A DNA stretch of 64,000 bases from a virus: IMG/VR virus record IMGVR_UViG_3300030114_000522; one strand, written 5' to 3'. The translations under genes and the position numbers were made by a program. Under the pieces are notes generated by a model. The model was not told where the DNA came from. It saw only the letters and a program-made list of their open reading frames with translations, and searched no databases. Numbering within the stretch: position 1 is the stretch's first letter; each line of letters opens with the position of its first letter. Below, piece after piece: positions 26,628-61,676 of the stretch.

Positions 26628-26906
26628 TTATTTGTTTATTTTTTTATTCATTGTTGTCACTATCCTTTCTTTAGATTAATTTTCTTTTGTGCTTTTATAA
26701 TAGGAATTTAATCATTAGGTTTGCTAATTTTTTATTCTAAAATATTTTACCTTTTATATTTAATTTGATTTGTAGATTAATCCTGTAGACTTTTCTATGG
26801 GATTAATTTTTGTTTTGGTTATTTTTGAATTTTTAAGGTCGTGTATGCTAGAGTATGCTTCCATATGCTACTGTTTTTGAGGGGTATTTTGGGTAAAATT
26901 AAGATT

Positions 26907-28307
26907 TTAAAATCTTTTACTGCCAAAAGAACTAGATTGAGTTTCTGCAATAATAAAAGTATTAATAATATCTTCCTCATCAACCTTTTCATCTTTAATT
27001 TCTTTTTTAGCAGATATCTTTTTAATTTGCTTCTTTATTTCATCTCTAATTTCAGTGCTAGATTTAGGTTTTTGATAAAAAGCAAGAGTGGTCGAAACGT
27101 CCTTCATTTATATATTCATATAGGTTCGTTAACTCCTATATCGTTCTCTAATGAACTGCTTATGATTTCCCATAAGATTAGACTATATCACTCTCCTAAA
27201 TTAATAGGAGACTCACCATTTCCACATACTTATGTGTACTTCCCGAAGGAATAGTCGTTAGGCTTTTATAATTAAAAATTACTTTTAATTAATTTAGCAC
27301 GGTAGGTTAGCATGTCTTTTTAAAGATTTAGCCTTCCCCGTATTAAGCGAGTTATTCGAAATGGATTACTCCATTAAGCCACAAGTTTTAGGTTTATGGT
27401 TTAAATATCGACTGACTAAAGATGGGTCTATTCCATTGTTTAACATTGTATTTGAAGCGGTCTTTCTGATACAATGTGGATGGAAGTCTTCAAGCCCTAT
27501 GATTGTTCCTATTTTCTTAACCCTTGTATATAAATTTCCTTTAGACATTCTATTATATTGTTGTGAATACCGACTGATAAATAAAGCATCAATTTCTAAA
27601 TTGTCCATCTTTTCTTTTCTTATTTCTAACCATGCCATAATCAATTCTTTTGTATTGTCATTAAATGACACATCTACGTGATAGCCTTCTTTTTCTCTAA
27701 TATCTTTGAAACAACAATTATCTAAATCCATACTTGATAATGTAAGTTTTTCAATTGCTCCAAGTCTATTAGCTGAATCCAACATTACATTCCATAAAAC
27801 TAAATCTAATAAATCAAACTTATTATCTTTATTTTCTACTAGTCCAGTTTGTATTTGTTGAATTTCATCATCATTTAAAAAATAAGCATTAGTTATATGC
27901 TCATCTCTAGCACCTTTCATTCTATCTAATTGTTGAAATGGATGGTATTTAATTTCTTTTCTCTTTACACTCCATAGATAAAAACTAGATACCGAAGATA
28001 TCTTTGTATTTATAACCTTTTTATTATTCTGTAATTTATCTTGACAAAAACTCATAAAAGATTCCATTATATCTATTGAGTTAGTCATAAAATCTTCTGA
28101 ATATAAGTCAATATTATCCCATTCTTCTGCTAGGAAAACTAAAAATTGATTGAAATAGTTGGCATAAATTTTATACGTGCTATCTTTTACATCTTTATTG
28201 CGTATGATATTGCTTTTTAGGTATTTATCATATTTCTTCTGATTATCCTCATCTACTAAATCATTCTTTTCTTTAGTAAAATAATGTATGTGTACGCTTT
28301 TACCCAT
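26907..28307 (-). CDS. tyrosine recombinase, spliced: exons 28307-27396 and 27104-26907, 369 aa
   Basis: SANR, EKEG, HPHCIRK; junction YLNH/KDVSTTLAFY restores the H and catalytic Y motif. Confidence 0.88.
27105..27395 (-). ncRNA. ORF-less group I intron, 291 nt (IA2-like), copy A
   Basis: P1 CCAU/GUGG with U.G; P7 GACUAU/AUAGUC; P7.1 and P7.2 hairpins; ends AAAUG; removal restores the frame. Confidence 0.9.
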
Positions 28308-28331: not shown

Positions 28332-29960
28332 TTAATTTGTTTTACTTATGAATATATTACTTTTTTCAAAAATCATATTATTGGTAGATAAATATTCTTG
28401 CAAAAATATAAAACCATATGAATTCTTATCTATATCTTTATAACATTTATTACCTTCAAATATTTCTTTATTATTACATTTGTCTTTTATTTTTTGAATG
28501 TTTTTAGTTATATAATAAAACATATTCATACATTTAGTTCTTTGTTTTAGATTAATGCTTATTAATATTTTATTATATTTTTCATAATCAACATAATTAT
28601 TTAATATTACTAATGCTGAGTTAGTAAATTTAACATTTATAGAACTACATATTTCTTTTACGCAATCTATATTTAATATTTCAGTTAAACTTGCAACAAC
28701 CGTTGATGAATCTAACATATCTATCAAATATCTTTTAGTATAAATACCATTAGGTAATTCTTTTAAAAGTTTTATTAATTTAAATTGATTGCCTTCCTCC
28801 CAAATGTTCAAATTGTCGGTTGGAATAGAAGTTTTGATTCCCAATATATCAAAATATTTAACTAATATGTAATTTATATTATTAAAATCCCAATAAGCAA
28901 TTCTTAATAATGGAATATTATTATCTTTACAATATTTTGTTTTAACACCATCATTAAATTGTGTCTTTTTAAATTGTATTTCTCCTCTTTTTGGTTCATA
29001 ATGCTGAATACCGTCATATTCAATTAAAAACATAACATTCCCTTCTTTAGATTTTATAGCTACGTCAAAAGGAAATCTTTTTTTATTTTTACAATCGGGA
29101 TACGTATATTGTTGTTTAAATTTAATTTTATTATATCTTAAAAATATTTCAATCACTTTTTCTCCTTTTGACGTAGCTTCACAAGTACATCGTGCGCCTT
29201 TTAAAATACTATCTGGTCTTACTTTATATTCTTTTCCACATTTATTATGTCTAATTAATATAGTGGTATGCGAACTAACATATTCTCCTAAAACCTCATA
29301 TTCTCCTTGATATGCTTGAAATATTTTTTCTTTAAACCATTGAGTATCTTTTGTTGCTCCAAATCCACAGAATCTACATCCTTTTCCTTGTAAAACATCT
29401 CCTGCCTGTCTATCATATACTCTTCCACAAGGAATGTGTTTTACTGTAACATTCTCCTTCCTACCCTTATATAATGATAGTATTTCAAACTCATTATCAA
29501 ATAATTTAGAAGTTCTAGCACAAAATTCTTCATGACTGATAAACAATTTATCAGCACCTTTTCTATTGCCACATTTAGGGCAACCATTCTTTTTATGCAA
29601 CATACCATCAGGAGTCATCTCAAATTCATATTGGCAATCTTCAGTATTATGTTTTAAAAGAATTTTGTTTTTAGCACTAGTATACTCACCTAAACAAATA
29701 TAATTATCTCCATATAATTCTTTTAATTCATTCTTAAAATAGTCAGTATCTTTATTCATTACTTTGTTGCTACATTTTGGGCAATGACAACCATTTTTTA
29801 AAAATCCATTTGCATTAATAGTCCAAGTATAATTATCCTCTTTACATCTAATAGTTATCTTTTTATCACAACTTTGATATTCTGTTAGAAATTCATACTT
29901 TTCATAACCTACTACTTCTAATACCTCTTTTACAAATTGTTCATGTGTTCTTTTTCTCAT
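28332..29960 (-). CDS. free-standing Zn-ribbon-repeat / PD-(D/E)XK (Vsr-like) endonuclease
   Basis: Repeated YEVLGEY..I.H..CG...CPKC units, then SKGE, FD, IEYDGIQHY, D..K..YC....IPLLRI. Confidence 0.75.
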   Translation of the reverse strand: MRKRTHEQFVKEVLEVVGYEKYEFLTEYQSCDKKITIRCKEDNYTWTINANGFLKNGCHCPKCSNKVMNKDTDYFKNELKELYGDNYICLGEYTSAKNKILLKHNTEDCQYEFEMTPDGMLHKKNGCPKCGNRKGADKLFISHEEFCARTSKLFDNEFEILSLYKGRKENVTVKHIPCGRVYDRQAGDVLQGKGCRFCGFGATKDTQWFKEKIFQAYQGEYEVLGEYVSSHTTILIRHNKCGKEYKVRPDSILKGARCTCEATSKGEKVIEIFLRYNKIKFKQQYTYPDCKNKKRFPFDVAIKSKEGNVMFLIEYDGIQHYEPKRGEIQFKKTQFNDGVKTKYCKDNNIPLLRIAYWDFNNINYILVKYFDILGIKTSIPTDNLNIWEEGNQFKLIKLLKELPNGIYTKRYLIDMLDSSTVVASLTEILNIDCVKEICSSINVKFTNSALVILNNYVDYEKYNKILISINLKQRTKCMNMFYYITKNIQKIKDKCNNKEIFEGNKCYKDIDKNSYGFIFLQEYLSTNNMIFEKSNIFISKTN

Positions 29961-30975: not shown

Positions 30976-31806
30976 TTAATCTAAATCTTCTATAATACTC
31001 AATAATTCTTCTTTACTTTTTCTAGTATATAGTCTGCTTGTCTCAATTGAAGCATGTCCACATAAATCAGCTATAACATCGATTTTAACATCAGCATCAG
31101 CTAGTCTTTTTGCATATTGGTGTCTATAGCTATGACAATGATTCTTCTCAAACTTTATATTAGCTAATTCTCCATATCTTTTTATTATTCTGTCAATACC
31201 ACTTCTAGTTAGTCTTCCTCTTTTCCCTACAAATAAATAATCCCAACCTTTATTAATTCTTCCTAGTTTGCAATAGTCAACCCATATATTGTTTAACACT
31301 TTAGGAATAAATACTGCTCTAATCTTATTACCTTTGCCGATAACTTGAATAGTATTCTTATGTATATCTTTTATCTGAATTTGAGTTACTTCACTTACCC
31401 TTAGACCAGTTAACTCAAGGCATTTAATTATTGCTATAGCCCTATAATCCTTTTTATTTCTAGCAATTTCAACCATACTATCAATTTCTTCTTTAGAAAT
31501 TACATTCTCTAAAAAGTTCTGAGATTGAATTTTAACCTTAGTAGTATTAGCAGGTATTTCACAAAACTTAAAATATTGATGAATTGCTATTAATTTTCTA
31601 TTAACAGAAGTAGGGGTTAAAAATCTTTTATATAATAAATATTCTTTATATTCCTTCAGAGTAATATTATGATATTCTTTTATATTGTGTTCAATAGAAT
31701 AATCTAAAAACTGGTGAATATCTTTTAGGTAAGCATTTATTGTTTTATCACTTTTTTCTCTTTCAATTAAGTAATTCTTAAATTCTTTAGTTTTTATTAA
31801 TTCCAT
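30976..31806 (-). CDS. XerC/D-like tyrosine recombinase
   Basis: TGLRVSE, GKGNKIR, HCHSYRH, LCGHASIETSRLYT. Confidence 0.92.
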   Translation of the reverse strand: MELIKTKEFKNYLIEREKSDKTINAYLKDIHQFLDYSIEHNIKEYHNITLKEYKEYLLYKRFLTPTSVNRKLIAIHQYFKFCEIPANTTKVKIQSQNFLENVISKEEIDSMVEIARNKKDYRAIAIIKCLELTGLRVSEVTQIQIKDIHKNTIQVIGKGNKIRAVFIPKVLNNIWVDYCKLGRINKGWDYLFVGKRGRLTRSGIDRIIKRYGELANIKFEKNHCHSYRHQYAKRLADADVKIDVIADLCGHASIETSRLYTRKSKEELLSIIEDLD

Positions 31807-58200: not shown

Positions 58201-61200
58201 ATTTATCTTGCGTTTCTTTTTTTAAATTCATTAGTCTTTCTAATTCAGCTTGGTCTTTTTTAATTTTATCTAAATTAGTTGAGGCACCTTTTGTATCACC
58301 ATTTTTAAGACTCTCATTTACACCATCTAGTGCAGTTTTTAGGTCATTAGATTGCTTTGCTAAACTTGCTTCATGTTGTTGGTATGAAACCATACCGTAT
58401 ACTACCATTGCTAATGCACCTGCTAAAGCTGATAATAATAAACCTAAAGGCGTTAACATAAAAGCAACTGCTGATGCTGTAGCGCCTTTTATACTAGTTC
58501 CGACTAAACCAAATGCAGTAGCTAATCCCGTTGCTCCATCTTCTAAAGCAATCATTCCTGATGCTATTCCCATAAATTTAGTTAGTCCAGTTACGATTCC
58601 ACCCTCAGTAGTTAATAACATTAATTCTTTATTAATTTTAGATAATTTAGTCATGACTAGAACTAATGAACCTATTGTTGCTATATATGCTATTGTTTTT
58701 CCATCAACATTTGATAATACATTTACTAGTTGAGTTGCTTCTGTAACAAAATATTTTAAAGAATCAGAAGACATTATTTTTTCATATAGTCCTTCAAATG
58801 ACCTTTTTAAATCATTTACTTTTGCGTCTAATGAACCATTGTAGGCTTCGTCCATCATTTTCTTTGCAGAGCCAGCAGATTCTCCTACTTGTTTTTGATG
58901 GATATTCAAAGTATCCATATTTTCCATTAATCCCATTAATGTTTCTCTTTGCCTTGTGCATTTACTTTTATTTATAAACGTTACTTTATAAATGTGATTA
59001 TTTAATCACCACTCTCTTTCAAGACGTTAATAAGACTATTTCTTCACCTTCATCTATTTATTTAATTAAATAATGTTAAGGGCATATCTTTTCCACTATC
59101 AATAACTTATAGTGTACTCCCTGTCGGGATAGTCGTTCAACACATTCCTATTCGGAACTTCGCTACCAAATTTCCATTATATTATTTATTTTATTAAATA
59201 ATCAACCACTTAGGATTTAACCATATAGTCATACCTTACGTTTTTAATAGTTTCCCACATTCACACTTGCCCATATTTCATAGCTATGTTGTAGTGTAAG
59301 GTCTTTAGGGTTTACTGGTTTTAGATATGTGTCCTATGCACATTTCTGTACATACGGGGCAGATTTACCCGCTAAAGCTTGAATTCCAGCCAAATAATCA
59401 ACTTGGCTTAGTTGTCCACTTTTAAATTTTGTCATAAATTGTTGCAAAACATCATCAAATTCTTTAAATTGTCCTTTATTAGTTCTAATTGATATTCCGA
59501 TACGATTCATTGCTAATTCTGTATCATTAATTGATTTCCCTTCATCATCTAATCGACCAAGTTTGATGTTACTATATCGTGAGTAGATTGTTTTAAAACT
59601 TTCACCTCATTTATATATTCATATAGGCTCGTTAACTCCTATACCGTTCTCTAATGAACTGCTTATGATTTCCCATAAGATTAGACTATATCACTCTCCT
59701 AGATTTAATAGGAGACTCACCATTTCCATTCACTTGAATGTACTCCATTACTGGATAGTCGTTAGGCTTTTATGATTAAAATTACTTTTAATTAATTTAG
59801 CACGGTAGGTTAGCATATTACTTTAGCAACTTAGCCTTCCCCGTATTAAGCGAGTTATTCGAAATGGATTACTCCATTAAGCCACAAGTTTGTAGTTTAT
59901 GGTTTCGGCACTTTTTCTTGTTTTTTCTGATACTGTCGTAATATATGCTACAAGATTACCTAATGGTGTTCCTGCTTCTTGGGCACTAAAAGCAGTTCTT
60001 TGTATTGCAGATGCTATTTCTTTAAATGAACTAGCCGAAACATTATCCATTTTAGATATCATATCTACAACGCCTTGCATACTTTCACCTGTCATATTAA
60101 AGGCATTTTTAATAGCAATTAATTGTTGAGTTACTTCTTCCGTAGACTGTCCAGAAACTTTAGAACCTATAATAGATGAAGACATCAGAGCTTCTCCTTC
60201 TTTTCCATCTATACCAGCTCTAGTAATTTCTTCCATACCTGTCATCATTTCAGTATTAGTAGTATGTAATTCCGCTCCTAATTGTTTATATTGAGTTACC
60301 ATTCCACTAATTTCAGATTTAGACTTTCCTGTAATCATTTGCATATTTGTGAGAGACTTATTCATGGTTAAAGTGTATTCACTAGCATCTTTAAACTGAT
60401 TTGCTATACCCCATATAACTTGTTGGATTCCATAAAACATTCCAATTTTACTTAAAAAATTAGTCATATTCCCGAAGAATCCGTTACTATTTATTCCTTT
60501 TAATGAATTATCTAATTGTTTAGTTTCATTATTAGTTTGTTCCATAGAAGTTTTTACAGTACCTAAACTATTTTTTATCCCTGTAAAATTAACTCCATCT
60601 ACTTGTTTTAGTTCTGCTAATAATTTTTTTAACTCTTGTTCTGTAGATTCTATAAATCCACTGGGTAATTTCTCTGCAAAAGTTTGTTTCATTTTCTCTA
60701 CTTTTATATGAGCTTCTTCTATTTGCTTGGTCAGATTAGATACAGTAGTTTCCCTACTAGTACTAGTTCCGATAGAACTTAATGCACTATTAATTTCTTT
60801 TAAAGTTGACGCACTTTTAGTCATTTGTTCTAATTTACTAATTTCAGAATTACTAATTATTCCATTTGATTTAAGAACATTAATTGATTGATACGCCTGT
60901 TCTTGCTTTTGTAATAATTCTTGTTCTTGTTGTAATTGTTTTACATTATCAGAATCACCTTTAACTTGTCTTTTTTGGTCTGATTCAACTAATTTATTAC
61001 TTAATTCAACTTCTTTTTGTAATTGTTGAATACGTTCCTGTTCTTGCTTTTGTAGATTTTGTTCTTCTACTTCTAATATTTTTACTTGGTTTAATAAATT
61101 TTTTAATTCATTATCAGAACCTATATTAGTTGTTGAAAGTCCATTTTGTAAATCCCCAATTTTATCTTTGTTTATGACTCCATTAGAAGACATCTTGTTT

Positions 61201-61676
61201 AATTTTTCTTGCGCATTTGCTATATCATTTAAAGCTTTTGTAATTTTGGTATAATTAGTAATTATAGTAGGTGCAATATCTGATTTAGTACCATCCTTAT
61301 TTAACATATCAATTTCTTTTCTTACTTGTCCAATACCTTGTGCTATTTCAGAAAAAGCTTTTATACTTCCATCTTTATAAGTGGTTATTGATTGTTTTTG
61401 TAATTCTCCATTAAGATTACCCATGCTTTCAACTGCACTATTTATTGTTTTATCTATATCTCCTAATGATATATTCCCCCCTAAACTAGATTTGAATTTA
61501 CTAGCTAAAGAAGTTAAAGTTTCTAATTGTCTTGCTACATTTGAGTCTTTAATATTAATATCTAAATCTATTTTTGTATTATTTAATGTTTCTATTAGAG
61601 TTTTTAGTTTACCATCTATATCTTTAGCACTCTCTAACTGTACTCCGAGTCTAATAGAGTTTTTATATTCAGCCAT
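55286..61676 (-). CDS. tail tape measure protein split by two group I introns (exons 61676-59899, 59607-59367, about 58957-55286; about 1895 aa)
   Basis: TP901-type core across junctions: TRKSAETI/GESFKTIYSRY...QALAG/(TR)QRETLMGLMEN; long coiled coil. Confidence 0.88.
58959..59366 (-). ncRNA. ORF-less group I intron, about 408 nt (second tape measure intron; exact junction uncertain)
   Basis: P1 GGGU/GCCC, P3 CAUAUCU/AGAUAUG, P7 GACUAU/AUAGUC, ends near AAAUG. Confidence 0.8.
59608..59898 (-). ncRNA. ORF-less group I intron, 291 nt, copy B
   Basis: About 90% identical to 27105-27395; removal gives AT+A (Ile) and an open middle exon. Confidence 0.9.

Follow-up and report, generated by a model that had tools for sequence, protein, structure and literature searches.

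Results

Organization of the Recombinase Locus

The window, by which we mean the whole stretch of 64,000 nucleotides analyzed here, belongs to a ~198 kb contig of a large phage from peat metagenomes and carries, on its minus strand, a tyrosine recombinase gene that is interrupted by a 291-nt intron just 5' of the catalytic Tyr codon (Table 1). The unspliced ORF encodes 313 aa and ends in ...SRYLNHKPKTCGLME; its frame is closed nine codons past His304 by an in-frame UAA that sits in the GUAA loop of intron helix P2. A second ORF of 66 aa, reading M-KDVSTTLAFYQKPKSS..., starts at an ATG that comprises the final three intron bases and is in frame with exon 2. Scripted excision of the 291 nt fused codon 304 (CAT, His) to AAG (Lys305) in phase 0, and the spliced product is predicted to be a protein of 369 aa that reads ...SRYLNH/KDVSTTLAFYQKPKSS... 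(here and below, a slash marks the splice site). The full R-K-H-R-H-Y set is present only once the exons are joined and, as the Tyr codon lies 3' of the intron, active enzyme would be obtainable from spliced RNA only.

Profile searches were in line with this layout. On the 313-aa ORF, the Pfam Phage_integrase match covered residues 144-305 and ended at profile position 157 (positions 3-157 of 172), so that the Tyr end is absent from this frame. The recombinase product was also matched by PHROG 1 and 216, both named "integrase." These observations agree with the original prediction, which had placed R, K, HxxR and H in the unspliced ORF (R181, K206, H278-x-x-R281 and H304) and the Tyr in exon 2 (Y314), had read the unspliced frame as running into the intron and stopping there, and had put the split gene calls down to a terminal AUG in frame with exon 2; gene callers do predict the 66-aa ORF separately. 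A plus-strand ORF overlapping the intron (26841..27254, 137 aa) was taken as spurious because it is antisense to a structured RNA.

TABLE 1. Coordinates of the features of the recombinase locus and of the related tape-measure locus in the window.
Feature	Coordinates	Strand	Basis or remarks
Exon 2, codons 305-369 + stop	26907..27104	-	ORF list; joined reading; AF2 model of P0002; purifying selection
Start of exon 2	 	-	begins KDVSTTLAFY
Y314, nucleophile	27075-27077	-	in exon 2; followed by C-terminal helix
66-aa ORF	26907..27107	-	start ATG 27105-27107
ORF-less group I intron, 291 nt	27105..27395	-	Rfam RF00028; pair-checked model; covariation; blastn
Catalytic core of intron	27181..27256	-	P7 (GACUA 27256-27252 / UAGUC 27185-27181) enclosing P7.1, P7.2, P3', P8
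P1	27379..27399	-	5' exon CCAU (27399-27396) + intron AA with guide UUGUGG (27384-27379)
Unspliced 313-aa ORF	27366..28307	-	in-frame UAA 27366-27368
Exon 1, recombinase codons 1-304	28307..27396	-	ORF list; Pfam PF00589 73 bits; invariant columns; XerD alignment
H304	27396-27398	-	catalytic residue, exon 1
R281	27465-27467	-	catalytic residue, exon 1
H278	27474-27476	-	catalytic residue, exon 1
K206	27690-27692	-	catalytic residue, exon 1
R181	27765-27767	-	catalytic residue, exon 1
Free-standing nuclease gene	28332..29960	-	542 aa, Zn-ribbon repeats; 24 nt upstream of recombinase start
Gene of ~200 aa	30254-30868	-	upstream of recombinase
Second, complete Xer-like tyrosine recombinase	30976..31806	-	276 aa, SAM-like N-domain
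Sister intron, ~90% identical	59608..59898	-	in tape-measure gene; after exon heptamer AAACCAU
Tape-measure exon ORF	59877-61676		sister intron splits gene

Identity and Structure of the Intron

With a 341-nt query, the Rfam model RF00028 (Intron_gpI) aligned over its full length (positions 1-253 of 253) to window positions 27159..27399 (-). The match scored 64.0 bits, the gathering score being 50, and its E value of 3.5e-16 puts it far outside chance expectation. Neither a 3-kb scan (E up to 1) nor a scan of all 64 kb of the window (gathering threshold) returned an Intron_gpI match; these larger scans apparently missed the intron because of the speed filters of Rfam searches. Introns of such type can thus escape window-scale Rfam scans.

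A secondary structure was modeled by hand and checked pair by pair in the two copies of the intron that the window contains. In P1, all six pairs were standard in both copies, with U27396·G27382 as the splice-site wobble, and U·G was the commonest pair type in this column among 66 distinct relatives. The 3' end of the intron reads ..AAAUG, with G27105 as omega-G. Apart from P1, P3 and P7, the model comprises P2, P4-P5-P5a, P6-P6a, P8, P9, P9.1, and P9.2, and every pair listed from P2 to P9.2 was standard in both copies; P3 (ACUCGCU/GGUGAGU) was checked in the two window copies and the Rfam alignment only. By inspection, P10 was weak, with only 3-4 possible pairs (AGG/CCU or GUUU/AAAC). Two further hairpins, P7.1 (UUCC-UUCG-GGAA) and P7.2 (CACAU-AAGU-AUGUG), lie between P7 and P3', and it is precisely here that the Rfam alignment placed an insertion. 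Extra hairpins of this kind between P7 and P3' mark subgroup IA2, which is common in phages. We therefore assign the intron an IA2-like architecture, an assignment made from the P7.1/P7.2 hairpins.

Covariation gave further evidence for the fold. A covariance model seeded with the two window copies found 71 matches, 66 of them distinct, in 88 phage or viral loci plus the window. Across the 66 distinct relatives, 95.7% of pair cells were standard, compared with 35-43% when the partners were slid by 1-3 columns, and two-sided changes occurred in 68 of 72 pairs; these pair counts are somewhat inflated since the alignment was fitted to the model, yet the margin is very large. P7.1 and P7.2 covaried both between the window copies and in the family, and P8 covaried in the family. 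P7 was nearly invariant in the 66 relatives, as is expected of the guanosine-binding helix. An RF00028 score above the gathering score, a U·G splice site, a terminal G and a covarying fold bear out the earlier reading of the interruption as a group I intron.

In blastn searches, the intron matched several hundred phage records. The annotated matches included the split thyA of the Bacillus phage TimeGriffin, the joined CDS g114 of AR9 and the lysK region of phage K, and a feature of Staphylococcus phage PM34 annotated as "Intron_gpI" was homologous to the window intron. In Staphylococcus phage vB_SauM-V1SA20, three consecutive matches to the intron model were found within ~940 nt (L001, 2172-3107); this stretch is annotated with small hypothetical proteins only and resembles a single gene with several unannotated introns in succession.

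The Junction in Intronless Homologs

A search of 5.8 billion proteins yielded 548 homologs of the recombinase. Among the best 120 of these, and leaving aside the product of the window itself, nearly all were uninterrupted proteins of ~330-365 aa. The original prediction had proposed alignment with intronless homologs as a check on the junction, and all 59 such proteins that were aligned read through LNH-KDVSTT-x3-Y with no indel across it. The closer relatives among them read LNHKDVSTTLxFYQKPKSS and the more distant ones NHKS.ETTR..Y, while the nearest homolog (P0002), which is intronless and 77% identical, reads SRYLNHKDVSTTLSFYQ. In viral contigs, a single-sequence search gave two relatives only and an alignment-based search gave 81 loci encoding a homolog, of which 80 aligned unbroken through residue 318 or further. 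The residues R181, K206, H278, R281, H304, and Y314 were invariant or at least 95% conserved (40-60 homologs). The insertion site lies among the best-conserved DNA stretches of the gene and matches the guide of the intron.

One further protein, P0035, has a divergent C-terminus and was considered as a second interrupted homolog; by eye, it resembled a frameshift more than an intron. Among contigs from four peat and wastewater DNA runs, none joined 27396 to 27104, a result of little weight, as contigs drop rare variants. Of the public runs listed as containing the locus, none was an RNA run. The extra read depth over the intron in those runs was attributed to other intron copies in the samples.

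Class, Fold and Family of the Recombinase

The exon 1 product scored 73.2 bits against Pfam PF00589 (gathering cut-off 27.1). Its alignment to E. coli XerD stopped at the LLGH of XerD (His270 motif), a few residues short of the XerD tyrosine. With the NCBIfam XerC, XerD, XerA, and XerS equivalogs, the best scores were 78-85 bits, far from the cut-offs of 220-335. The AF2 model of the intronless P0002 (pLDDT 86) showed the two-domain recombinase fold and matched XerA, Tn1549 Int, IntI, XerH, Cre, and lambda Int in the PDB, all with probability 1.00. Mapped onto this model, exon 2 covers two helices, a short one with the Tyr (308-314) and a long C-terminal one (321-340). The protein was accordingly classified, by profile and predicted fold, as a member of the tyrosine recombinase superfamily outside the XerC/XerD/XerA/XerS equivalogs.

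The window also encodes an intact Xer-like recombinase, separated from the interrupted recombinase (the integrase) by the gene of ~200 aa and the nuclease gene. The trio of Xer-like gene, gene of ~190 aa and integrase is conserved in L012, the viral locus that encodes P0002, and a Xer-like gene precedes the integrase in L136 too; the two recombinases may form a two-recombinase system. The integrase family (L136-L213, IMG/VR) has a wide distribution among large viral contigs, of which many measure 100-350 kb and several come from isolate genomes; Paenibacillus and Bacillus carry homologs on their chromosomes. This distribution suggests large Firmicutes phages of a temperate or plasmid-like kind.

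Other Intron Copies, Lineages, and Selection

The recombinase intron and its sister in the tape-measure gene both follow AAACCAU, and the exons are otherwise unrelated. The two copies differ mainly in P5a, P7.1, and P7.2, and the eight pairs that have changed are all still paired. Elsewhere in the tape-measure gene, at about 58940-59340 (-), we observed a further intron-like stretch with a core of the form GACUA...P7.1/P7.2-like...AAAUAGUCU. It gave no match to the two-copy covariance model at E < 0.001, from which we take the stretch to belong to a different intron lineage.

A second phage lineage (L014-L017, L135) carries the same intron at the same codon of the integrase gene (...AACCAT/intron/AAGGAT...), the integrase protein being 77% identical to that of the window. 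Its counterpart in L012 is intronless and retains the local gene order of the window, namely Xer-like recombinase, gene of ~190 aa and integrase. In exon 2, pN was 0.023 and pS 0.44 between the intron-bearing L017 and the intronless L012; the corresponding values between the window and L017 were 0.18 and 0.59. Exon 2 is thus under purifying selection, a pattern expected only if it continues to be translated within the enzyme, and hence only if the RNA is spliced. In addition, the intron-plus arrangement was stable across several peat samples.

The Adjacent Nuclease and Intron Mobility

The 542-aa product of the free-standing gene next to the recombinase matched PHROG 559, 9084, and 7140, families that are named HNH, homing and intron-encoded endonuclease. 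A nuclease homolog with 66% identity occupies the same position in the second intron-bearing lineage (L014/L016/L017), and L012, the closest intronless relative, is without the intron and without the nuclease gene. Distant homologs of the nuclease (31-34% identical) were found upstream of intronless integrases in L155 (1628-2416) and L178 (1478-2422). By analogy, the arrangement resembles collaborative homing, and the nuclease can be regarded as a candidate mobility partner of the intron, with a link that is partial. As it recurs upstream of intronless integrases, the nuclease may also target the integrase gene by itself, in the manner of intronless homing. A close paralogy between the 542-aa nuclease and a 452-aa nuclease near the tape-measure gene was considered and rejected, only Zn-ribbon-like stretches being shared (E ~0.01).

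From these comparisons, the intron probably reached its site by endonuclease-assisted homing and/or guide-directed ectopic insertion. Since the target of the sister intron is shared over 7 nt only, guide-directed ectopic insertion, e.g., by reverse splicing, would fit at least as well. A separate observation concerns the nuclease gene. In two peat DNA runs, a contig joined 28596 to 29960 with 19 other letters between, at depths of 101 and 33, compared with ~12 for the phage. This contig may come from a related genome in which the nuclease gene is largely missing, or else from a repeat with no relation to the phage.

Discussion

In this study, we analyzed a recombinase gene of a large peat phage whose nucleophile codon is separated from the rest of the active site by an intron. 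The interruption is very probably a mobile group I intron of the IA2 type that has no ORF and was acquired recently, and its removal would restore a functional Xer/Cre-like recombinase of 369 aa. Following the course expected of such elements, the pre-mRNA would fold so that the guide UUGUGG pairs with the exon sequence CCAU/AA, an exogenous G would attack after U27396, and the freed exon 1 would then attack after omega-G27105; the ligated mRNA would encode the enzyme with its complete R-K-H-R-H-Y active site. On unspliced RNA, a ribosome would translate nine intron codons before halting in the P2 loop, and would release a by-product that has neither the Tyr helix nor the C-terminal helix. The position of the intron is probably a by-product of selfish-element biology and not a regulatory device.

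The main competing possibility is that splicing efficiency acts as a switch, for example between lysogeny and induction or with the growth state of the host, between the active enzyme and a dead, DNA-binding blocker of 313 aa. In favor of a switch, a truncated protein would retain both DNA-binding domains along with five of the six active-site residues, the intron has been kept in two lineages with exon 2 intact, tyrosine recombinases with a Tyr-to-Phe change still bind DNA, and splicing of T4 introns reportedly depends on translation and growth state (Sandegren & Sjoberg 2007). From the modeled fold, a 313-aa product that binds DNA and is inactive is plausible; that it would act as a blocker is less certain, as it is also without the C-terminal helix, which contacts and links the neighboring subunit in Cre-type enzymes, and stable blocking of the site is therefore doubtful. 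Furthermore, the family needs no switch, given that 80 of 81 viral homologs are intronless, and the intron behaves as a multi-copy selfish element whose sister occupies the same 7-nt target in the tape-measure gene. The intron-encoded tail is not conserved between the two intron-bearing lineages, with KPKTCGLME before the stop in the window and KLQLVA in the second lineage, so that the tails differ in length as well as sequence. Early in-frame stops are general among the group I introns of phages and bacteria, and such stops are thought to aid intron folding by halting the ribosome (PMC3984707). On balance, we consider the regulatory switch unsupported by these data and unlikely. A narrower version, in which the intron has been co-opted in a small clade of peat phages and incomplete or condition-dependent splicing yields truncated recombinase that occupies sites or poisons tetramers, seems to us quite improbable; if it were true, integration and excision or genome resolution would be gated by ribozyme folding, and hence by host translation rate, GTP or Mg2+.

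The two ORFs could also be what they seem to a gene caller, or relics. A two-piece enzyme, in which the 313-aa and 66-aa products are translated separately and assemble non-covalently, would make use of the AUG at 27105-27107, which is in frame with exon 2, and the 66-aa product is indeed predicted by gene callers. However, no Shine-Dalgarno sequence is suitably spaced from this AUG, the closest AGGAG being ~27 nt upstream and inside the P9.2 stem. The AUG simply belongs to the conserved ..AAAUG end of the intron family, and in the tape-measure copy it falls out of frame. Moreover, the RNA between the two pieces amounts to a complete ribozyme, and we regard such an enzyme as extremely unlikely. 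Alternatively, the insertion may not be splicing, now or ever at this place, and the recombinase may be a decaying pseudogene, made dispensable by the intact Xer-like recombinase nearby. Decay is difficult to reconcile with two intact exons in which the catalytic residues are all kept, with a pN well below pS in exon 2 between intron-bearing and intronless lineages, with an intact ribozyme core in which stem differences between the copies are compensated, and with an arrangement that persists across several peat samples, and we judge a dead gene to be very unlikely.

Read as a mobile, splicing element, the intron resembles the group IA2 introns without ORFs that are known from Gram-positive phages (in Staphylococcus phages, those of phage K lysK/pol and Twort; in Bacillus phages, those of AR9, PBS1, and the SPO1 type), with a P7-P9 core that is 70-85% similar over 60-235 nt. 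It shares with them P7.1 and P7.2, a size within 250-350 nt, an early in-frame stop, a site within conserved protein-coding sequence of a phage gene and the frequent presence of several copies per genome. It differs from them in its host gene, a tyrosine recombinase. The hosts of phage introns listed in a review (PMC3984707) and in the searchable literature are polymerases, ribonucleotide reductases, thymidylate synthase, terminases, lysins, and structural genes, and the review gives polymerases, ribonucleotide reductases and terminases as the typical ones. In the searchable literature, whose coverage is incomplete and which includes this dedicated review, no integrase or tyrosine recombinase gene with a group I intron came to light. 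The host gene is thus unusual, and the biology is otherwise that of an ordinary selfish intron.

The neighboring nuclease invites comparison with collaborative homing, where an intron lacking an ORF has the same target site as a free-standing endonuclease (PMC3984707). Examples are F-CphI and the psbA intron of cyanophage S-PM2, and the DNA polymerase introns of T3/T7-like phages (PMC3984707, PMC6083498). As in these pairs, the ORF-less intron of the window lies beside a free-standing gene resembling homing endonucleases, and both elements are present in two lineages and absent from L012. Unlike in these pairs, distant homologs of the nuclease also stand upstream of intronless integrases, and the recombinase site and that of the tape-measure intron have nothing but AAACCAU in common, which fits guide-directed ectopic insertion better than protein-directed homing.

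The recombinase itself resembles the "simple" recombinases of the Xer/Cre type (XerA, XerH, XerD, Cre, and IntI) in its two-domain fold, its R-K-H-R-H-Y set and the absence of a lambda-type arm-binding domain. It departs from them in a longer N-terminal part and in a long C-terminal helix rich in Lys and Glu; its scores also fall far below the XerC/XerD/XerA/XerS equivalog cut-offs, and its family is mostly located on viral contigs of 100-350 kb.

These findings would add site-specific tyrosine recombinases to the classes of genes that host phage group I introns, and would provide one more clear instance in which an intron occupies the part of its host gene that is best conserved and critical for catalysis. 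They also have a practical consequence for annotation, since gene callers turn this gene into a nucleophile-less "integrase" of 313 aa and an orphan of 66 aa; "integrases" without the Tyr in phage metagenomes should be checked for introns before they are called inactive. Finally, the intron, the nuclease, the sister copy, the intronless relative, and the second lineage would together constitute a compact natural data set on intron movement.
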